From the sequence record MF327006: DNA of 64,000 bases; one strand, 5' to 3'. Under the pieces are notes generated by a model that made no database searches, was not told the DNA's origin, and was given only the letters and a program-made list of their open reading frames with translations. How positions within the stretch are numbered: the first letter of the stretch is position 1; each line of letters opens with the position of its first letter. Below are positions 12,092 to 62,717 of the stretch, piece after piece. Source of the DNA: Shigella phage Sf20. The position numbers and the translations under genes were made by a program.

Positions 12092-12095
12092 TTAT

Positions 12096-12123
12096 AAGCC
12101 GTCCTTGTGGGCGGCTTTTTTGT
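12096..12123 (+). terminator. rho-independent terminator after the MTase cassette
   Basis: Hairpin AAGCCGTCC-ttgt-GGGCGGCTT followed by TTTTTTG. Confidence 0.65.
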
Positions 12124-12131
12124 ATGTATTT

Positions 12132-12139
12132 TATAAATA
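12132..12139 (+). promoter_or_regulatory. T4-type late promoter core TATAAATA upstream of gene 9
   Basis: Exact TATAAATA 28 nt upstream of ATG 12167. Confidence 0.6.
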
Positions 12140-12166
12140 ATACATCATAACATGAGGAATTAAACA

Positions 12167-32410: not shown

Positions 32411-33652
32411 ATGACTCATATTTTTACTGAACTGTTGCGGGAATCTACTTCCTCAGTAGCTAACCAGACAGCGCGACCGCAACTATTATCATTAACTCGC
32501 GCGGTAAACAACCTGATTTTCTCTGACCTGGTAGCAATCCAGCCAACGGATCAACCAGTATCTGCATTGTACGGACTACGTTATCTTAATCGTGATGGTC
32601 AGATGACTTTCCGAACTGCTGCGACCTACGGTGGCGCGGCTGGTGATCGCACAGAGATTGAAGAGTTTTCAAAAGAAAAATCTTATGACGAAGGCGCACT
32701 GTTCAAATCAGGCGATGTTGTATACGAAGTTGTGACCGCTGGTACAGTCGGTGAAGATGCCGAAACTCCAGAATCTGCAATCTTTAAAGGCGTAATGACA
32801 AACAAAATTCGTTTCTATAGCGATTGTGCATCGGTAGAATACTTTGAAGATAAAAACACCGAAATTTCGTCTACCTCTATGCAGTTTGACAAGTGGCAAG
32901 TTAATGTAGGTTCTCGTAAACTGAAAACCTCGTTCACGACCGAATTGATGCAGGATCTTGAGGCAAGCCAAATCAACTCTGAAAACTCTGTAATTGATCT
33001 TCTGGCTACTGTTGCTTCCGAAGAGATCAACAAAGATATTATTCAGAAGTTGATCACTGTATCATCTCGCTATAAAATTAAAGGGATCACTCCTGATGGC
33101 GTACTTTCTCTCGTTAGCGTTCAGGATGCACCAACACAAGCGCGTGAACTTTACCGCTATGCTTGCGAAATGAGCAATCAAATGTTGCGGACTTCCTCCT
33201 TTGCTGGTACATACGTTTTGGCGTCTTCTCGCGTGGTTGGCCTCCTGCAATCTTCCGGTTGGATGGAAGAAACCGACAATGCTCTAAGCGAAGGTCGTCT
33301 ACGTTGCGGTCTGGAAGTGTACGCAGACACGACAACACCTTTCGATTATATGCTCGTTGGTTGTAAGCACATGATCGGTGATATGGAGAGTGTAGGTTCT
33401 CTGTTCTACTCCCCATATACAGAAGCCGACGGCGCTGGCGCGTATAAGAGCGTAATTGACCCTAATAGCTTCCAGCATCATGTAGCTATTATGAATCGTT
33501 ATTCACTCTCTGTCAACCCATACACATCAAAAGTTGATCAGGAAGAACACCAGGTCATCAAGGGTGACGATTGGGGTAAAATGGCTGGACGTTCAGAAAT
33601 GTCCTACATTTTAGGAATCGAACTGCCACCGCTTGAGATTGACAACGCTTAA
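32411..33652 (+). CDS. 24: head vertex protein gp24, 413 aa
   Basis: Starts MTHIFTELLRESTSS (T4 gp24 ..NELLRESTT.. as remembered); ORF-track TTG extension overlapping the late promoter trimmed. Confidence 0.9.
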   Translation: MTHIFTELLRESTSSVANQTARPQLLSLTRAVNNLIFSDLVAIQPTDQPVSALYGLRYLNRDGQMTFRTAATYGGAAGDRTEIEEFSKEKSYDEGALFKSGDVVYEVVTAGTVGEDAETPESAIFKGVMTNKIRFYSDCASVEYFEDKNTEISSTSMQFDKWQVNVGSRKLKTSFTTELMQDLEASQINSENSVIDLLATVASEEINKDIIQKLITVSSRYKIKGITPDGVLSLVSVQDAPTQARELYRYACEMSNQMLRTSSFAGTYVLASSRVVGLLQSSGWMEETDNALSEGRLRCGLEVYADTTTPFDYMLVGCKHMIGDMESVGSLFYSPYTEADGAGAYKSVIDPNSFQHHVAIMNRYSLSVNPYTSKVDQEEHQVIKGDDWGKMAGRSEMSYILGIELPPLEIDNA

Positions 33653-34240
33653 CTAAATATCTAACCAAGACAAGTCAGATCCGCCCAAGATTTTTTCGAC
33701 GGCGGATCTATTTTCTTGATGATATAAGTTAAAACATGGTATCCCATGTCTACGGGCAACATAAACAGCAATTCGAGTTCCTCCCGAAACGATTCCATTA
33801 ACTTCTTTCGCCCAAAATATCACACAATCTACAGGGTCATCAAGTGTCTCACCTAAGACTTGAGCAACATTTCTGGAAAACAGATTTTGCATGTATAGCG
33901 GTATAGAACGAGGATTATCATAAACGTGTTCTAATTCATCCATCGCCAGATTCTTTTGTTCTAAGGTTTGCCATGCAATAACATCATGACCGTTATGCTT
34001 GTGGTCATAAAACTTCCAATTTGGAATGAAAATTTTTCTATAATCTGGATCGTAATACTTCATGAAAGCATTGTCCATACCGTAAGCCCCTCCAGAATGC
34101 GCTACAACGCGATTTTCTGACAATACCCTCCCAATGGTACTAGCCATTATCAAAATGTCGCTAGGCGCTTTTCTAGAGCCGATTAAAGCACATCTACGAA
34201 GTGGTTTTACTCCAAATAGATCTTGTAACTGGTCAAACAT
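33653..34240 (-). CDS. Rossmann-fold DprA/SLOG-like nucleotide-binding protein, 195 aa
   Basis: Segment ALIGSRKAPSDILIMASTIGRVLSENRVVAHSGGAYGMDNAF resembles the DprA/Smf-type Rossmann motif; convergent with gene 24. Confidence 0.4.
   Translation of the reverse strand: MFDQLQDLFGVKPLRRCALIGSRKAPSDILIMASTIGRVLSENRVVAHSGGAYGMDNAFMKYYDPDYRKIFIPNWKFYDHKHNGHDVIAWQTLEQKNLAMDELEHVYDNPRSIPLYMQNLFSRNVAQVLGETLDDPVDCVIFWAKEVNGIVSGGTRIAVYVARRHGIPCFNLYHQENRSAVEKILGGSDLSWLDI
33677..33718 (+). terminator. putative terminator after gene 24 (overlaps 3-prime end of convergent gene)
   Basis: Hairpin AGATCCGCC-15 nt-GGCGGATCT followed by ATTTTCTTG. Confidence 0.4.
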
Positions 34241-34392
34241 AATATTTCCTCCATAGAAAGCAATATCATACTACAAGTTAATAACAAATACAAGTATCCG
34301 CGTAGCGGAAGCGAGCACAGCGAGCAATAAAACACTTCCAGTAATTGACTAATAAATGTTCGAAACAAATTTTTATTATTCTATAAGATAAG

Positions 34393-34567
34393 TCTTCGTT
34401 TTGATCATAATTTAATCATACATGTAAAAACTACACAAAAGGATATCGCTTCGCGAACTCCTACGGAGTATAACATTTGTGTTACAATATGTAGTGATTA
34501 ATAATTAACCAAAGATACATTTTCTATGTTCTAAAGATCTTTCTTCGTTTTGATCATAATTTAATCA
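34393..34567. repeat. two 26-bp direct repeats (TCTTCGTTTTGATCATAATTTAATCA) 149 bp apart in AT-rich intergenic region
   Basis: Exact copies at 34393-34418 and 34542-34567 in the 413-bp non-coding gap upstream of the DprA-like gene. Confidence 0.7.
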
Positions 34568-34620
34568 AACAGTATTAATATTGTGCACATGTAAACTAAA
34601 ATTATGTTAATAACAGATAC

Positions 34621-34647
34621 AAAAAAGCCGCCCCGAAGGACGGCTAA
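34621..34647 (-). terminator. rho-independent terminator (minus strand)
   Basis: Minus-strand hairpin AGCCGTCC-ttcg-GGGCGGCT followed by TTTTTT, just downstream of stop at 34654. Confidence 0.65.
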
Positions 34648-34653
34648 TGTTAA

Positions 34654-35091
34654 TTATTTGTTGATAACGATCTGATTTCGGCGAATGGTAACATTACTCT
34701 TAGAGATGATCAGATCATCCGGCACTACGTTAGTTTTGTATGGCTGGAAGCGAACAAGCATCTGATTGCGTTTAGACCCTTCCTTAATCTTGATTTCCAT
34801 CTGGATATTGTTGCCTACGTGAGCAACCGCAATTTCACCTTTATTCTCATAGACCCACTTGCTGGTAACGTCTCCTGCAAAAGCCTTAATAACTTGCAAT
34901 GCTTCGTCGTATGCGGTAGAGCTGTGAACTTTCAGAAGGCCAGCCGTAGCAAGACGGGAGCAGGTGATCGCCGGAGATTGCCAAACATCAACATTAATTT
35001 GCTCAATCAGAGTAACACCGCCCGGATCAACTGCTTTGAATGCTTCGAACATTGCCTTTTTCATTGCTACGTGGTTTTTACGGAATTTCAT
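34654..35091 (-). CDS. hypothetical protein, 145 aa
   Basis: ORF between terminator and upstream coupled gene pair. Confidence 0.5.
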   Translation of the reverse strand: MKFRKNHVAMKKAMFEAFKAVDPGGVTLIEQINVDVWQSPAITCSRLATAGLLKVHSSTAYDEALQVIKAFAGDVTSKWVYENKGEIAVAHVGNNIQMEIKIKEGSKRNQMLVRFQPYKTNVVPDDLIISKSNVTIRRNQIVINK

Positions 35092-35137: not shown

Positions 35138-35413
35138 TCAGGACATTGCCCGTTTGAATGCGTCCATTATAACAGTGTTATTTGGCTTGTCAACACGTTT
35201 TTGAACTTTATTTTTAAATTTTTTGTTGATGTGGTGTTTACGATAAACAACCTTTTCACGGTTGGCGTAAGCCTCGCGTGCGTCTTTTACCATCAACCAT
35301 GCCTTAGCCGCATCTTGTCCGCTGATCCCGCCAATCTTCTTAGCAATATCAACAAAATTAAGACCGTGGTCTTCGCGTAGCATGTAAACCATTAACGCTG
35401 TTTTCTTGTCCAT
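35138..35413 (-). CDS. hypothetical HTH-like protein, 91 aa
   Basis: Starts at internal ATG of the 127-aa track ORF; that ATG overlaps the stop of the upstream small gene (TGATG); helix-turn-helix-like LNFVDIAKKIGGISGQDAAKAW. Confidence 0.45.
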   Translation of the reverse strand: MDKKTALMVYMLREDHGLNFVDIAKKIGGISGQDAAKAWLMVKDAREAYANREKVVYRKHHINKKFKNKVQKRVDKPNNTVIMDAFKRAMS

Positions 35414-35610
35414 CACTTCGCCCCATTGACGATTAACAGGATAGTGATCAGTACCGGAAACTGGATCATGACAGTGCCAAAAAACCGGATAAACGCATTT
35501 TCTGATTTCCATACATGACATGCGACTAGCTGATAGACCATTGTTGCAACCAAAGCCAGAAAATACATCTCGATTGGTGTTTCTTTGATCAATCGTACAA
35601 TCTCATTCAT
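35413..35610 (-). CDS. small hydrophobic (membrane-like) protein, 65 aa
   Basis: Strong RBS GAGGTGA before ATG 35610; hydrophobic stretch MYFLALVATMVYQLVA; translationally coupled to downstream gene. Confidence 0.5.
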   Translation of the reverse strand: MNEIVRLIKETPIEMYFLALVATMVYQLVACHVWKSENAFIRFFGTVMIQFPVLITILLIVNGAK

Positions 35611-35769: not shown

Positions 35770-35801
35770 TAAAAACAAAAAAGCCACCCCGAAGGATGGC
35801 T
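35770..35801 (-). terminator. rho-independent terminator after hoc
   Basis: Minus-strand hairpin AGCCATCC-ttcg-GGGTGGCT followed by TTTTTTGTTTTT. Confidence 0.7.
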
Positions 35802-49207: not shown

Positions 49208-51333
49208 TTACATTTTAAATTTATCTGGCATTGCGTCTACAGATACCAGGTCAGCGATAAGCTGACGTAGAGTTGCCTTATCTGCTTTCTTACGTTCGGT
49301 TTTAGCTTCGCTAATGAAGCTGGAGAAAGACAGGTCAGAAGCAGGTTTAACAACACCTTCACGGATGAATGCATCACCGTCCGCGATCATCTCGCCAGAT
49401 TCTTGTAATGCTGCCAGTTCATTTTTGTTCATAATATGTGCCTCAATGTAATAAGTTTCTTGTGAATCCGTCGATGCCGTAGCACGAGTTACCGTATCAA
49501 AGGATAACACAACACCGCGAGGAAGTAAAATCTCGCATTCTTTGTAAGCAAATGCTTTGTTACCTACTGGCAAGACAGGGATGTTTTCCGCGCCAGCAAT
49601 GGAGAAAGCAACATTAGCGCCACCTTCACCGCGAGAGCCAGCCATAGAATCAACACCAGCAACGGCACTAGCCACGTTTGCATTCCAGCCGCCAAAAATT
49701 CACCGCGAGAGCCAGCCATAGAATCAACACCAGCAACGGCACTAGCCACGTTTGCATTCCAGCCGCCAAAAATGTTAGGTGCAAGGGAAGTGCTCACATA
49801 GTTTTTAAAGTAAAACGCTTTTTGCTTACGTGCAGTTTCCCACATTTGCGACCGGAAGTCCATACCACGATACAGAATAGTACCCGGATCAAGTTTAACA
49901 CCATAGTTAGAGAAGGCATTATCCAGTGCATCGCACATCTTGACCAATTCTTCTGGATCTGCGATTCCCTCAAACTCTTCCAGCTTACGATCAGTTAGGA
50001 AGTTGTTCATATTGATGTATGCTGCATCGGCATATTCGCTCAACACAAAACCTTCCGCGCCTGGCAGATCAAGATCAATATCTGCCATCATTTCACCCAT
50101 GTTGCTAGCAATTGCTTCAAACATACCGGAGGCAACATTACGTAGGGCATCGGTTTTAATCTGGGTGATATGACTACGCAGCATTTCAGCTTTTACATCT
50201 GCTGGCATAGACTGGTCTACTCGATCCATTGCCAAGGCGGTGATCTTGTTTTCGAATACTTCCTCGCTCATGATTTCTTTTAAGCGTTTGACCGAGGCTG
50301 CGATAACTTCCGCAGACAATGGGTCATATTGATCCTGAACTTTTACCAGTTCGCTTACTGCGTATTTTGCATCGGCTTCGCTTTCAAAAATAGTACGCAT
50401 GAAACCATAGCGAGTGATAATATCACTTGTCCAGTCATTCAGAGAACGGGCGGTTGAACGTTCTAAGGCTTGACGGTCAATCAGAGTATTAAACTGTTTC
50501 TTAGGTTCTGCTTCGGTGATATCTTCTTCCGGTTTAAGATTAATTTTTTCTGGATGATTCACATAGTCGCTGTTATAGGTCGCTTGAGTTTTCAGCATTT
50601 CTTCTTTAGTCAAACGAGATTTAGCCGCTACGCGTTGTTCTGCTTCCGCGTTTCGTTCTTCTTCTGACACAAGACTAGCCGCATACGCCTCATCTTTAGT
50701 CAGAGATTCACCAGTAGCCTTAGATACCCAGCGATCACCTAAATCACTTTCTACTTTAGTGAACAAGGATTCATCAAGTTTAATCCCTTTAATCTTATCA
50801 ATCGCCATCCCGCGACGCTTGACAACAACTAAAGCGATCTTTTTGCTGGTCATTACTTCCTGCTGGAATACTTCAAACTTCGGTGTACGACGCACCAAAC
50901 GCTCTATAACGCGCTTAACCAGTTCGGTCTTACCTTTCATGCGGGATACGTTAAAACGGAACATAACAGCGTCTAATTGAGCTTTACGGGCTGTTTCCAT
51001 AACCACATCAAAAGCACTTGCCATAACTGCAATCGGGTTATCGCCTAGACCATTTTTAAGCTGTATAATACGACCGCTTTTGTTCATTTCGCACAGTACA
51101 ACATGTGCGGTCTTGTCACCCATACGAATGATTTTAGGTGTTTTGTTGGTGAAGTTGCAAAGACGGACAATCACATCTTTATCGCGTGTCTGTACTGCAA
51201 AAAGCTGTTTAGGATTCTGCTTAGGCTTTAAGCACTGTACAGGAGCAATACTGCCAAAGTTTTCTTCCTCTTCCGTCAACAGCCATTTCTCGAAAGATTC
51301 AATCATTAGATCGTCGATTTCTAAGTTAAACAT
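49208..51333 (-). pseudogene. alt: alt (ADP-ribosyltransferase) disrupted by 74-bp tandem duplication frameshift
   Basis: 589-aa ORF (49564-51333) carries LYRG and YVSTS; 155-aa ORF (49208-49675) carries the ExE motif KECEIL; both encode ASAVAGVDSMAGSRGE from the duplicated segment; removing one copy gives a single ORF of about 683 aa (T4 Alt is about 682 aa). Confidence 0.75.
49625..49772. repeat. perfect tandem direct duplication, 2 x 74 bp
   Basis: 49625-49698 is identical to 49699-49772 (TTCACCGCGAGAGCCAGCCATAGAATCAACACCAGCAACGGCACTAGCCACGTTTGCATTCCAGCCGCCAAAAA). Confidence 0.9.
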
Positions 51334-54770: not shown

Positions 54771-54801
54771 AAAAAAGCCGACACTAAGGTCGGCACATTT
54801 T
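54771..54801 (-). terminator. terminator hairpin GCCGACACTAAGGTCGGC
   Basis: Hairpin 54777-54794 flanked by A/T runs, just downstream of stop at 54800; identical hairpin at 55279. Confidence 0.6.
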
Positions 54802-55271: not shown

Positions 55272-55300
55272 ATAAAAAGCCGACACTAAGGTCGGCTAAT
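55272..55300 (-). terminator. terminator hairpin GCCGACACTAAGGTCGGC (second exact copy)
   Basis: Hairpin 55279-55296 followed on minus strand by TTTTTATTT. Confidence 0.6.
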
Positions 55301-60202: not shown

Positions 60203-61691
60203 CGAATACCTCTTTTACTGTATTTGCAGTGGTCTTGTCGTAGCGAATACGTTTGATGATTGGGAGAAATAAAGAGAACTCCGGTTCATCTTCTTTACGT
60301 GATTTGCTGCGAATGTACCCGTTGCATGTCATCTCAATGACTTTTCCAATCAGGTTATGACGGTCAGCCCATAACATTTCTCGGTCGAGTTCATTTCGAC
60401 GATCGAACGGAATTACACGTTCAGTACCATCATCACCTTTTTCGGTTGTAGTGTCGGTTAATCCCGATCCGGTGTTAGTCATCATTCGTCCGCACGCACT
60501 ACGGACAGTAAAACCGCCTACCTTATTGGGGTCTTTACTATGCGGATATACATCAACAATTTCCGCGTCGAAGTCAATCACTTCTTTAAATTTAACCTGA
60601 TCTTTACTACGGCGATCTTCAAATACACCATGTAAATTTTTAAGGATAATACCTTCTAAGCCCATGTTTACATAGCGATGATATACTTCGCGAGCTTCAT
60701 CTATATTGTTAACTACAGTGTTTTCGATTATCTGAACACGAGGATCGTTAAGTTCTTCAACAATCTGTTTTAGTTCTTCGAATCGATCTTTATATTGCTT
60801 CGTTGCTTTCTCGTTTCCGTAATACACATCACGGTCGATAACATCCCAGACAGTGTAAACAATACATTGGGCTTCTTCTTTTGGAATAGTTCCTTTCAGT
60901 GATTTGTTGAGGATACCATTTCCGGTCTGACGATCTGCAACAACGGATTCTTTTACTGCTTCCGCTACTGGCGTTAATGGCATTTCCTCTTCTTCAAATA
61001 TCCATGACAGAGTACCATCATAAACGCTTTCAACGAAGTTCTGCGCTGGTGTTTGCGAAAGGGTAGGCATATATACCAATTCCCCATCTAGAACAATTCC
61101 ACGGCCTCGTAGACGCTCTAGAACAGCAAACAAATCATCAAGTCCCTGATAGGTATTACCTGAACGGGTATAGATTGCTAATGTTTCCCCGTCAATATCA
61201 GCCATCCCACGAGCGCCATCGCTTTTAAGTTGTGCATACGCCGGATACTTGATATTAGCAATAGTCTTATCAGAACATGACGATGCAAGGTGGCACGGTT
61301 GCTGAGGGATCAGTTTCTTCCATACCTTGTTTGCAGTGGTAGCGGAACAACCACATTCCAGATCACGATTCAGGACCATCATTGCAACTTTAGCATCATC
61401 CTCTGACAAGCAAGTCAGAGTATCGGTAACTAGCTGTAATGCTGCATTACCAGTTACTTGACGCGTGGCAAGTTTATTTTTAAAGACCTGTAATGCACCG
61501 GATAAAGACAATACAGACGAATAGCGAGATGGTTTATCGTATTTCTTTACGCCAAACGTAACCTGTTTGCAATATGCCAGATAAAAGCATTCTTTCAGCG
61601 TTTCATTGCTTGCTGATTCTTTCAGAATCTTTTCTTTCAGCGATGTTTTGTCTGTTGCTGCAAGCTGATTAATGATATTAAGAATTGACAT
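60195..61691 (-). CDS. 30: ATP-dependent DNA ligase gp30, 498 aa
   Basis: Adenylation motif KSDGAR; N-terminus SILNIINQLA resembles remembered T4 ligase N-terminus; ORF-track GTG extension trimmed. Confidence 0.9.
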   Translation of the reverse strand: MSILNIINQLAATDKTSLKEKILKESASNETLKECFYLAYCKQVTFGVKKYDKPSRYSSVLSLSGALQVFKNKLATRQVTGNAALQLVTDTLTCLSEDDAKVAMMVLNRDLECGCSATTANKVWKKLIPQQPCHLASSCSDKTIANIKYPAYAQLKSDGARGMADIDGETLAIYTRSGNTYQGLDDLFAVLERLRGRGIVLDGELVYMPTLSQTPAQNFVESVYDGTLSWIFEEEEMPLTPVAEAVKESVVADRQTGNGILNKSLKGTIPKEEAQCIVYTVWDVIDRDVYYGNEKATKQYKDRFEELKQIVEELNDPRVQIIENTVVNNIDEAREVYHRYVNMGLEGIILKNLHGVFEDRRSKDQVKFKEVIDFDAEIVDVYPHSKDPNKVGGFTVRSACGRMMTNTGSGLTDTTTEKGDDGTERVIPFDRRNELDREMLWADRHNLIGKVIEMTCNGYIRSKSRKEDEPEFSLFLPIIKRIRYDKTTANTVKEVFDV

Positions 61692-62157
61692 TTTCACCTC
61701 GTTTTGTTAAACGTTCACGAATATCATTGAGGATACTACAAAATTCCGATTCAGTCAATATAGTCTTTAACGGATCAGTTCCACCTATACTATGACGTAA
61801 TTTCTTATTTCCGGTAGAGAGTAATGCTTTACAAAATTCTGGGTTATTCCGTGCCATCGTAACAAATGCCAGATGTACCAGTCTGTAATAATGCTCACTC
61901 ATTCGATGAATAGGGCGACCCTGAAAATATAACATGTGATTCTCAATCTTTTCAGTTCTTCCGGTTCTTTTTGCTTTGCCACCGTGCATCAAAAAGATTT
62001 CTCTTTGTCTCTGAGGGTTCTTAAATCTTAGCCCCTGTAAAAATCCTTCTGTGCTGTTAATATCGCAACCAAATAGACGGAATGGTCTTTTATTGAAATT
62101 ACTCAATTCACCCGATGGATAAGGTCCACCCGCATAGATATCAATTTCAGAAGTCAT
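61678..62157 (-). CDS. NADAR (YbiA-like) domain protein, 159 aa
   Basis: IDIYAGGPYPSGELSNF ... STEGFLQGLRF ... LLSTGNKKL resemble NADAR/YbiA conserved segments. Confidence 0.55.
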   Translation of the reverse strand: MTSEIDIYAGGPYPSGELSNFNKRPFRLFGCDINSTEGFLQGLRFKNPQRQREIFLMHGGKAKRTGRTEKIENHMLYFQGRPIHRMSEHYYRLVHLAFVTMARNNPEFCKALLSTGNKKLRHSIGGTDPLKTILTESEFCSILNDIRERLTKRGENVNS

Positions 62158-62393: not shown

Positions 62394-62717
62394 TTAACCG
62401 TAAACTACCACAATATTCTGTTTGTGCGTTACAGTCCATTTCAGGTCGATCTCTTCTTCCTTCTTAACGCCGTTAATAACGTCTGGATGAGGAACTTTAT
62501 TCATCTTGCCATGTGGCAGTAGAACAGTTTTACCCAGCAATTCTTTATCTACCGTCTCGCCAATATCAATAATCTTACCTACCAGCGGAATCTCGCCCAT
62601 AGTGCGCTTTTGCTCAATAATGATTCCCATAGAGCTTTTTACTTCGGTCCCTGCGCTTTCTGCTTTAGCTTCGATAATTACATAATCACCAAGTGCTTTA
62701 GGAGTTTTAACGGTCAT
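62394..62717 (-). CDS. 31: GroES-like head assembly co-chaperonin gp31, 107 aa
   Basis: GDYVIIEAK and KVPHPDV match remembered T4 gp31 (GEYVILVSE, NVPHPFV); RBS AGAGGT. Confidence 0.8.
   Translation of the reverse strand: MTVKTPKALGDYVIIEAKAESAGTEVKSSMGIIIEQKRTMGEIPLVGKIIDIGETVDKELLGKTVLLPHGKMNKVPHPDVINGVKKEEEIDLKWTVTHKQNIVVVYG

Follow-up and report, generated by a model that had tools for sequence, protein, structure and literature searches.

What does a DprA-like gene do in a T4-type phage, and what is the repeat-bearing non-coding DNA in front of it for? Both questions are raised by one locus of Shigella phage Sf20 (sequence record MF327006), of which we analysed a stretch of 64,000 nt (hereafter, the window). 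There, a 195-aa open reading frame (ORF164) is convergent with gene 24 and is preceded by an AT-rich gap of 413 bp that contains two exact 26-bp direct repeats. The original prediction, made from the sequence letters alone, described a DprA-type protein standing where T4 has rnlB (the gene of RNA ligase 2, Rnl2) and offered regulator-binding sites, promoters, or a replication or recombination element as possible roles of the repeats. We found that the 26-mers belong to an intergenic repeat family with four copies, being the best-preserved cores of two members arranged in tandem. With regard to function, our leading reading, to which we would give a probability of about 45%, is that the gap is a conserved cassette acting as a transcription insulator and restart for an orphaned DprA-like gene, in which the repeat elements would serve as nucleoid-protein platforms and weak auxiliary promoters.

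The window is of Krischvirus origin (RB49/Phi1/JSE type), and the 1.8-kb region around the locus shares 95–99% identity with 58 Krischvirus genomes (RB49, Phi1, JSE, GEC-3S, and others). The gap (34241–34653) is as AT-rich as had been described (GC 0.30 vs. ~0.41 in the window) and is the most AT-rich stretch of the window, where no other 413-bp stretch has a GC fraction of ≤0.33. No gene is annotated in it in Phi1, TB34, or most other records. The repeats (TCTTCGTTTTGATCATAATTTAATCA) are indeed exact and 149 bp apart, and a 26-mer match with ≤3 mismatches was obtained in 0/100 dinucleotide-preserving shuffles. When indels were allowed, the similarity extended over ~59 bp at 85% identity, and with a later profile over ~140 bp. 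The 26-mer itself was dismissed as a genome-wide regulatory motif, having two copies only in the window (and two per contig in IMG/VR); the wider family surfaced only through a profile of divergent relatives. A hidden small protein gene was also rejected, given that the ORFs of the gap (23–53 aa) are unconserved and have no ribosome-binding sites, and that the tiny ORFs starting from the ATG inside the repeat are not conserved. No Rfam family and no tRNA was matched in the window or in the relatives.

Among ten Krischviruses, 5 of the 52 repeat-core positions varied, and the exact 26-bp identity is not universal, as G2248 and PHB13 carry substitutions in both copies. In these two phages each copy is mutated at the same offset, namely the A of GATC at positions 34404 and 34553 of the window, which is T in one and G in the other; GATC/TGATCA is thereby destroyed. 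This paired loss could be a coordinated binding-site change or chance. Avoidance of GATC was discarded as its cause, since the motif is not under-represented in the window (385 observed vs. 356 expected).

The repeat family was recognised in divergent relatives of the locus, namely the metagenomic and IMG/VR contigs L025/L026, L027, L028, L029, and L032, whose DprA-like proteins are 50–87% identical. These share one layout (24.3, an ORF165-like gene, a terminator, an AT-rich gap of 330–570 bp, the DprA-like gene, and convergent gene 24), and rnlB is absent from all of their loci. The gaps of L025, L027, L028, L029, and L032 each contain two units homologous to the repeats of the window, or three in L029. 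Neither an unrelated protein family for ORF164 nor an absence of the repeats from related phages was therefore found. Each unit begins with box 1 (TGRTTAAAwnwTGATCAAACG) and a variable arm, continues with an AT-rich centre containing ATCTyTATAAT and the complementary arm, and ends with box 2 (TTTGRTTAATwATTAATCA) followed by two short GC hairpins. The full element is an imperfect palindrome of ~140 bp. In nhmmer searches, copy A of the window gave E=1.1e-9 with the unit profile and 3.8e-32 with the full-element profile, and copy B gave 2.8e-8 and 4.5e-29, respectively. Copy A folds as a long imperfect hairpin, which copy B has lost. The unit profile detected only these two copies in the window.

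The element profile detected exactly four copies per Krischvirus genome (Phi1 and the window). In Phi1 (NC_009821.1), the third copy is directly upstream of gene 3 (~62452–62589, minus strand; L045 12452–12589), where it adjoins an inserted endonuclease gene (ORF130.1) and ORF130, and the fourth (~149923–150062, plus strand; L046 22924–23063) is upstream of gene 36, between the gene-35 terminator and a TATAAATA late promoter. The census returned about four places per record in 58/58 Krischvirus records, and our search of phage records found the element in no other phages. It is unannotated in all Krischvirus records seen and appears to be undescribed, while the DprA-like protein family is already known.

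It is possible to view these four dispersed copies, all intergenic, as recombination substrates (a phage counterpart of the PeSLs, the promoter-early stem-loop "mobile regulatory cassettes", or of bacterial MITE/ERIC-type repeats) and not as regulators of ORF164. Such elements would mark or mediate indels, here the loss of rnlB, and would persist as recombinogenic or mobile sequences. All three element sites look rearranged relative to the T4 map (the loss of rnlB; a homing-endonuclease gene and ORF130 between genes 2 and 3), and copies within a genome are usually more alike (76–93%) than copies across lineages. In addition, recombination between PeSLs in RB49 and Phi1 has been demonstrated experimentally (PMC2839356). 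However, direct copies 149 bp apart should vanish fast in a T4-type phage, yet 2–3 were kept in every lineage sampled. Conservation is also selective: G1, Y4, A5, T11, R12, and C15 of the boxes and the ATCTyTATA motif are kept, whereas drift is seen at other positions, the central W positions among them. A target-site duplication is not visible, and the canonical features of a PeSL (a near-perfect TTGACA-N17-TATAAT and a G-run/C-run stem; PMC4122927) are absent. Overall, we consider a purely recombinational role unlikely.

In concept, the element is nonetheless close to the PeSLs (Arbiol et al. 2010, PMC2839356; Comeau et al. 2014, PMC4122927). Like our element, they occur in these same phages as short repeated intergenic modules with promoter-like sequence and stem-loops, located between a stop codon or terminator and the next ribosome-binding site, where the gene content of relatives differs. 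PeSLs are compact and flank early ORFans, whereas the element described here is a ~140-bp, long AT-rich imperfect palindrome with weak −35/−10 boxes, Fis-consensus boxes, and two GC hairpins with 3-nt loops, and two of its four copies precede late genes. Classification as a canonical PeSL was rejected: the best promoter-like site of the gap is TTGTAT-17-TATGAT, and the elements carry TGATCA-17/18-TAGAAC/T, although some relatives (e.g., L028A) come nearer to the PeSL promoter. Stem-loops are present in an intergenic position and in four copies, but they are AT-rich palindromes plus short GC hairpins in place of G-run/C-run stems. Those motif strings of the element that we searched for are absent from the text (figures aside) of PMC4122927, and ORF164 and ORF165 are unmentioned in the text (figures aside) of PMC2839356.

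The element is also reminiscent of repeats from outside the phage world. ERIC/IRU, BIME/RIP (with IHF), and the Correia repeats of Neisseria are dispersed intergenic imperfect palindromes of 100–150 bp that carry a nucleoid-protein site and sometimes promoters or terminators. Our element shares the size, the dispersed intergenic setting, the imperfect palindrome, and a nucleoid-protein consensus, but it differs in being part of a phage genome, in having only four copies, and in showing neither a target-site duplication nor evidence of transposition.

The nucleoid-protein consensus in question is that of Fis, GNNYAWWWWWTRNNC (PMC3302801; variants in PMC2816674 and PMC4245941). Of the seven matches in the 64-kb window, four form a cluster in the 413-bp gap, and box 2 of copy B still fits despite the lost long hairpin. 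The gaps of the relatives contain 6, 5, 6, 2, and 1 matches, compared with shuffle means of <0.1, and across the relatives' loci we counted 24 matches in 2.6 kb of gaps vs. 3 in 25 kb outside gaps. The roles first suggested for the repeats (regulator-binding sites, promoters, or a replication or recombination element) therefore went in the right direction, in that the repeats are part of a conserved element with predicted Fis-consensus and promoter-like features.

Clustered Fis-consensus sites are also known at oriC and DARS2 (PMC10380432, PMC4245941). The gap could accordingly be read as a DNA-level cis element for replication or late-transcription coupling, either an origin (a promoter and an AT-rich unwinding region bounded by nucleoid-protein sites) or a hairpin site in single-stranded DNA. 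Its extreme AT content, the long palindromes with mini-hairpins of the GNA-triloop type such as GCGAAGC, and the position of two other element copies just upstream of late genes would be consistent with this. Such mini-hairpins are unusually stable as DNA hairpins. Against this stand the presence of only two direct copies where an iteron array would be expected, the lack of an initiator gene and of a DnaA-box cluster, and the four dispersed copies upstream of genes, which fit regulation better. An iteron-type origin was rejected on the further grounds that the window has no additional copy within 3 mismatches and no adjacent rep-like gene, although an AT-rich region is present. T4 origins depend on MotA middle promoters, and no motA is annotated in the Phi1 parts listed. 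A T4 MotA middle promoter (a MotA box TGCTTtA at about −30 and a TAnnnT −10) was rejected too, since the partner of the sole TGCTTT (34257–34262, minus strand) is a TATTAT overlapping the ATG, and the pair could not transcribe ORF164; likewise rejected was a T4 late promoter, whose defining TATAAATA is lacking from the gap. A link of the gap to MotA middle promoters or an iteron-type origin is not supported, and we regard a replication role as very unlikely.

The sigma-70-like pair of the element is clearer in some relatives than in the window itself. TATAAT is found exactly 17 bp after the conserved hexamer in the copies L025A, L028A, L028B, and L029A (in L028A, TTGAAC-17-TATAAT). The pair is weaker in Krischviruses, with TAACCA-17-TAGAAT in the gene-3 and gene-36 copies, and in the gap TGATCA (34551–34556) with a 17-nt spacer to TAGAAC (34528–34533) in copy A and TGATCA (34402–34407) with an 18-nt spacer to TAGAAT (34378–34383) in copy B. 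Closer to ORF164, the sigma-70-like candidate with the best minus-strand score of the gap has equivalents (TTGnnT-16/17-TATrrT) at the same place in L025 (TTGATT-17-TATAGT), L027 (TTGTGT-17-TATAAT), L029, and L032 (TTGTTT-17-TATGAT), from which we infer that it may act as a promoter. In L032 (IMG/VR 3300005711_000029; DprA-like protein 87% identical), an extra ~170 nt lies between the promoter-like site and the DprA-like start (1300–1480), and its two repeat units carry TTGACA-17-TGTAAT at a different position within the palindrome.

The short hairpins that trail each copy are likewise shared among lineages. Equivalents of H1 are AATCC-GAA-GGATT (L032 and L029), ATGCC-GTA-GGCAT (L027), CATGCC-GATA-GGCATG (L025), and GTGCC-TAC-GGCAC (gene-3 and gene-36 copies), and the GCGAAGC/GCGTAGC of H2 is kept in L032, L029, L025, L027, and the gene-36 copy. 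In hairpins of the H1/H2/H4 type the loop is 3 nt long and, on one or the other strand, mostly of the GNA type, while the clear terminators of the genome have UUCG-type tetraloops. The hairpins were picked by eye at homologous positions, which favours pairing. H4 was the only one that lent itself to a clean test. Its five core pairs are 100% paired in six lineages and 3/5 have changed on both sides, i.e., H4 shows compensatory changes; its pairing score was reached by 0/500 shuffles. The −35 box of the conserved promoter-like site falls within the T-rich tract after H4, and the conserved block next to H4 forms a true hairpin only in L029 (Table 1).

These structures could indicate that each element is a small RNA gene, in which the weak promoter inside the palindrome would produce a ~90–100-nt transcript with box 2 and the GC hairpins, ending at H2 (copy A) or at H4 and the T tract (copy B). 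The conserved −10 box at a fixed distance from the conserved hexamer in relatives, the conserved unpaired block before H4, and a gap that folds somewhat better than shuffled sequence (z = −2.7) would all fit, and H4 with its T tract, just 350 bp after a strong terminator, is sensible only if transcription occurs in between. On the other hand, no Rfam family was matched, H1, H2, and H4 (stems of 4–6 bp with 3-nt loops) would be weak as RNA terminators, the window's own phage has poor promoters, and a consensus RNA fold of the element was sought and rejected, with RNAalifold on a MAFFT alignment returning just the box-1 palindrome. A small RNA gene is in our opinion decidedly doubtful.

Table 1 Features of the ORF164 locus in the window (coordinates in nt of the 64,000-nt stretch).
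Feature	Position	Strand	Description
ORF164	33653..34240	-	195 aa, stand-alone DprA-clade SLOG (Rossmann) domain
Shine-Dalgarno GGAGG of ORF164	34248..34252	-	sequence; ribosome-binding site annotated in Makalu_001 record
ORF164 sigma-70-like promoter candidate	34265..34293	-	TTGTAT-17-TATGAT; best minus-strand score of the gap, 8.3
Element copy B	34281..34423	-	unit 34345-34420 and two trailing stem regions
Hairpin H4	34297..34309	-	TCCGC-TAC-GCGGA, then T-rich tract; after copy B; terminator- or attenuator-like
Conserved block	34311..34325	-	GCTCGCTGTGCTCGC (GCTCRC-N3-GYTCGC); kept in window, L032, L025, L027
Predicted Fis-consensus match, box 2 of B	34347..34361		matches GNNYAWWWWWTRNNC
Exact 26-bp repeat, copy 1	34393..34418	+	core of element B
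Predicted Fis-consensus match, box 1 of B	34403..34417		GATCATAATTTAATC on plus strand
Element copy A	34430..34572	-	unit 34493-34569 and hairpins H1, H2
Mini-hairpin H2	34446..34456	-	TCGC-GAA-GCGA, containing GCGAAGC; after copy A
Mini-hairpin H1	34457..34469	-	ACTCC-GTA-GGAGT; after copy A
Predicted Fis-consensus match, box 2 of A	34496..34510		consensus match
Exact 26-bp repeat, copy 2	34542..34567	+	core of element A
Predicted Fis-consensus match, box 1 of A	34552..34566		consensus match
ORF165 intrinsic terminator	34626..34645	-	GC stem, UUCG loop, T run; terminator annotated in several records
ORF165	34654..35091	-	145 aa, phrog_15652, function unknown; upstream neighbour of ORF164
Perfect extended sigma-70 promoter	35193-35166	-	TTGACA-16-TG-TATAAT; within 24.3 3' end, upstream of ORF165

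How the DprA-like gene might have come to need such a cassette is suggested by the arrangement in other T4-type phages. In Moonvirus CF1, Jiaodavirus JEC, and Karamvirus KMB19, the gene directly follows rnlB on the same strand, often with an overlap, and in Slopekvirus Toast it is downstream of rnlB at another genomic location, an inserted HNH gene separating the two. In Morganella phage vB_Mm5, which is the closest outgroup, the order is 24.3, a 155-aa ORF, Rnl2, and the DprA-like gene, and Krischviruses have 24.3, ORF165, the gap, and the DprA-like gene. No Rnl2 homologue was detected at E≤0.01 in Phi1 and the window, which together cover the genome, while rnlA and pseT are present. We also considered an rnlB pseudogene in the gap or in ORF165 and rejected it, as a tblastn search with four Rnl2 proteins gave no match, be it in the gap, in the window as a whole, or in the remainder of the genome. 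Given the synteny downstream of rnlB in relatives and the Krischviruses without rnlB, it is the gap and not the DprA-like gene that sits at the rnlB position. The original placing of the protein where T4 has rnlB therefore needs correction, the protein gene being an extra gene that lies just downstream of rnlB in these other phages. Nor is the DprA-like gene dependent on Rnl2. Our search of literature text did not find a description of the conserved rnlB/DprA-like partnership in T4-type phages, and to our knowledge no role of Rnl2 in infection has been established. With regard to existing annotations, the DprA-like ORF after rnlB is unannotated in the Karamvirus KMB19 record (OL828290.1). The record of phage Skers (MW748999.1) has a "putative RNA ligase" feature under the match to our region, unlike the other records, which list hypothetical proteins or the DprA-like gene there; this is probably the DprA-like ORF named by synteny.

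We propose that the gene is the last of a transcription unit of 24.3, an ORF, rnlB, and the DprA-like gene in most T4-type phages, and that the RB49-like lineage lost rnlB from the genome, with a non-coding cassette of 330–520 bp taking over its place. The loss would have cut the DprA-like gene off from its operon. In transcription order, the cassette consists of the ORF165 terminator, two tandem ~140-bp elements, a conserved hairpin with a T tract, the sigma-70-like site, the Shine-Dalgarno sequence, and the ATG; each element copy has two Fis-consensus sites bracketing a weak −35/−10 pair, and then two short GC hairpins. This cassette may halt read-through from ORF165 and re-initiate early transcription of the orphaned gene from a new early promoter, with the elements as binding platforms for a Fis-type nucleoid protein and as auxiliary promoters. 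The same element might do an equivalent job in front of genes 3 and 36. Selection on box 1 and the −35 box, recombinational homogenisation between the copies, or both could maintain the exact 26-bp identity. A literature search found no published Krischvirus transcriptome.

Several of our observations weigh against this proposal. No strong sigma-70 promoter was found in the gap on scanning; the −10 boxes of the window's elements are poor (TAGAAC, TAGAAT), their −35 boxes are weak, and they did not stand out in any sigma-70 scan. The score of the ORF164 promoter candidate is just 8.3, and 121 minus-strand sites of the window score ≥8. The Fis consensus is degenerate, the boxes double as palindrome arms, and in the gene-3 and gene-36 copies only 1/4 boxes meets the strict consensus. 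RNAalifold gave no consensus fold beyond the box-1 palindrome, and on the protein side the sequence-level alignment with DprA spans only ~45 residues of ORF164, while the domain fusions and gene neighbours described below fit an ADP-ribose-linked role at least equally well. The gap is also more variable (14.3 variable columns per 100 bp) than the flanking genes (7–9) among ten Krischviruses. As the most variable segment, with a long hairpin lost in copy B and internal promoters degenerate in the window's own phage, it might be viewed as junk DNA left by the rnlB deletion, in which a recent local duplication left the repeats behind as a neutral relic. The same block structure is, however, kept in 2–3 copies in lineages whose DprA-like proteins are only 50–70% identical, the element recurs at two other loci in 58/58 Krischvirus records, and H4 has changed in a compensatory manner. 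These comparative data largely exclude a neutral relic, which we hold to be extremely improbable.

The gene that the insulator-and-restart cassette would serve encodes a one-domain DprA-branch member of the SLOG (Smf/DprA-LOG) Rossmann superfamily. The translation of ORF164 is 100% identical to a Krischvirus RB49 protein and corresponds to Phi1 ORF164, for which RefSeq already uses the name "DprA-like DNA recombination-mediator protein". The DprA-type motifs that had been pointed out (GSRKAP and VVAHSGGAYGMDNAF) are both present, and the assignment to DprA/SLOG held: ORF164 matched phrog_768 (of the same name) with E=1e-60, and its AlphaFold model is confident (pLDDT 93.9; 32-sequence alignment) and has DprA as the best structural match, with a Rossmann-type DprA core fold. 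It is a three-layer alpha/beta Rossmannoid in which a glycine-rich loop follows strand 1 and a GGxGT-type motif is present, as in the SLOG superfamily, and in sequence and fold it is nearest to DprA, not to YpsA, LOG, or ThsA. As DprA-type core motifs we read GSR following strand 1, SGGAxGxD following strand 2, F-x-RN, and GGT, and R23, R123, N124, G153, G154, and T155 are invariant in the family. In DprA, the core motifs form a pocket holding one nucleotide of single-stranded DNA.

The likeness is more restricted at the level of sequence profiles. Pfam DNA_processg_A (PF02481) matched at 22.3 bits, under the 29.6 cut-off and only over aa 15–60, and 28/32 relatives have the same sub-threshold match; none of the 32 matched the YpsA or LOG models of Pfam. 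TIGR00732 (NCBIfam dprA) gave 14.4 bits vs. a curated cut-off of 191, and the weak matches of NCBIfam dprA, PADLOC ShosA, and PADLOC PsyrA all fall on the same ~45 residues. A profile of the ORF164 family matched H. pylori DprA in the Protein Data Bank (PDB) with E=3e-4. We rejected a full-length DprA alignment by profile methods, since hhalign and hmmsearch cover only ~45–66 residues, and a ~50-residue insertion (aa 60–115) was unaligned to Pfam DprA, E. coli Smf, and PDB DprA sequences in the searches run. The motifs GSR and SGxAxGxD were aligned to DprA by HMMER and hhalign, while the correspondence of FxRN and G(G/S)(T/S)xxxA to E. coli Smf (FxRNR and SGSxxTA being the DprA forms) is a manual reading with no computed alignment. 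Compared with DprA/Smf, the mediator of recombination in natural bacterial transformation (E. coli Smf and H. pylori DprA), which binds single-stranded DNA, dimerises, and loads RecA, ORF164 shares the SLOG Rossmann fold and appears to have counterparts of these four motifs, but it consists of the core only, with a short N-terminal helix outside it and neither the N-terminal SAM nor the C-terminal winged-helix domain, and the lytic phages that encode it already possess UvsX and UvsY.

Two other assignments were tried and rejected. A LOG phosphoribohydrolase would carry PGGxGTxxE, whereas ORF164 reads GGTRIAV, with no catalytic Glu and no Pfam LOG-family match. ShosA, the antitoxin of ShosTA (PDB 8ZVA), is a DprA-like protein able to act in defence via single-stranded DNA and RecA (PMC12961424). 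ORF164 gave a match of only 17.9 bits to PADLOC ShosA (aa 15–58), has no SAM domain, and is adjoined by gene 24 and the gap, with no ShosT-like phosphoribosyltransferase. That it mimics or replaces ShosA is speculation.

The family to which ORF164 belongs is widespread. Homologues were detected by tblastn in 1,354 phage records of many genera, and a profile search returned 4,319 clusters at 50% identity, mostly stand-alone proteins of ~180 aa. No experiment on this phage family turned up in our literature search, although DprA/Smf SLOG proteins have been noted in jumbo phages as possible extra single-strand-binding proteins (PMC7824862), and viral SLOG domains have been predicted to process or sense ADP-ribose derivatives (Iyer, Burroughs, Anantharaman, and Aravind 2022, PMC9503650). 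We infer that the ligand of ORF164 may be single-stranded nucleic acid or derived from a nucleotide, and that the protein may be an accessory factor in repair or counter-defence. An accessory role in binding single-stranded DNA or RNA and an ADP-ribose-linked role in counter-defence seem to us roughly balanced.

In its strict form, the latter would mean that ORF164 does not handle DNA but serves in counter-defence as a SLOG enzyme or sponge, binding or cleaving molecules derived from ADP-ribose, such as cyclic ADPR signals or RNA-repair by-products, as PMC9503650 predicted for viral SLOGs. Among ten long family representatives that we scanned, 5/10 were fused to NADAR (two of the five being ~1,480 aa, with further SLOG domains) and 1/10 to DUF4326. 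Family genes have NAMPT in their vicinity in both Slopekvirus Toast and Pakpunavirus PsCh, in the latter together with a macro-domain gene. Such fusions and neighbours are in keeping with the description in PMC9503650, and ORF164 likewise is a stand-alone SLOG protein of a phage. Among the genes of the Krischvirus genome are, in addition, a homologue of T4 gp30.3 (window 61684–62049, minus strand; Pfam Phage_30_3, NADAR-related; 38.5% identity to a vB_Mm5 protein) and, outside the window, tk.4 (Phi1 49740–50195), which resembles a macro-domain protein. Genes of the SLOG (ORF164), NADAR-like, and macro types are therefore combined in this phage. Nonetheless, the ORF164 family scores best against DprA, whereas PMC9503650 places most viral SLOGs in a YpsA-like clade; the LOG catalytic motif is lacking, and one of the ten long representatives is fused to RecJ, a single-strand DNA exonuclease. 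These points speak against a role confined to ADP-ribose derivatives. NADAR itself acts on ADP-ribosylated single-stranded DNA, so the NADAR fusions do not separate the two readings. Overall, the strictly ADP-ribose-based role is possible but on balance rather improbable.

In the local gene order of Phi1, genes 23 and 24 are on one strand and ORF164, ORF165, 24.3, ORF167, hoc, and inh on the other. Gene 24 (Pfam Gp23 family, E=1.9e-88; the Phi1 annotation corresponds to window 32411–33652) and ORF164 have stop codons that abut at 33652/33653 with zero spacer, and there is no terminator between the late transcription of gene 24 and the antisense of ORF164 (window 33650–33655). An ORF165-like gene stands before the gap, beside 24.3, in every relative examined. 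A weak similarity links ORF165 with the ORF that occupies the gene-24.2 position in Jiaodavirus JEC (24% identity over 87 aa; E=0.05 against the window and 2e-4 against the local region). With its perfect promoter and strong terminator, ORF165 is a self-contained promoter-gene-terminator cassette. Its terminator belongs to a sequence family that recurs elsewhere in the window, with near-identical intrinsic terminators of the AAAAAGCCGCCCCGAAGGACGGC type at 12094–12141, 35775–35801, 54771–54794, and 55274–55300, and this family accounts for the extra places matched by the gap in blastn searches of each Krischvirus record. Gene 24.3 is 127 aa in our ORF listing (35138–35521, minus strand) and 91 aa in the Phi1 annotation (35138–35413); the long form has a DUF2774 match at residues 42–104, and by eye the protein has the look of a small helix-turn-helix DNA-binding protein.

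If the element were only a weak promoter and insulator, its description would be a tidy and ordinary annotation. There are two more far-reaching possibilities. The ~140-bp element might recruit host Fis or form DNA hairpins, controlling replication- or growth-phase-coupled expression at four loci, and DprA-like SLOG proteins, Rnl2, and NADAR-type enzymes could act on ADP-ribosylated or damaged single-stranded nucleic acids in counter-defence. We would give only low odds to the element being an unrecognised phage cis-module or small RNA family, to the ORF164 SLOG protein being a counter-defence partner of Rnl2, or to both. Annotation of the repeat family is lacking in all 58 Krischvirus genomes, among them several from phage-therapy collections. 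As a Fis-dependent module, a small RNA, or a recombination hotspot, the family would bear on the timing of expression and the reshuffling of genes, and it would extend the PeSL concept beyond early ORFan regions. With regard to the protein, the DprA-like family is very common in phages yet is named by homology alone, and the Rnl2 partnership in T4-type phages together with the NADAR, DUF4326, and RecJ fusions leads to concrete, testable hypotheses. If true, the counter-defence reading would give the long-enigmatic phage Rnl2 a functional partner.

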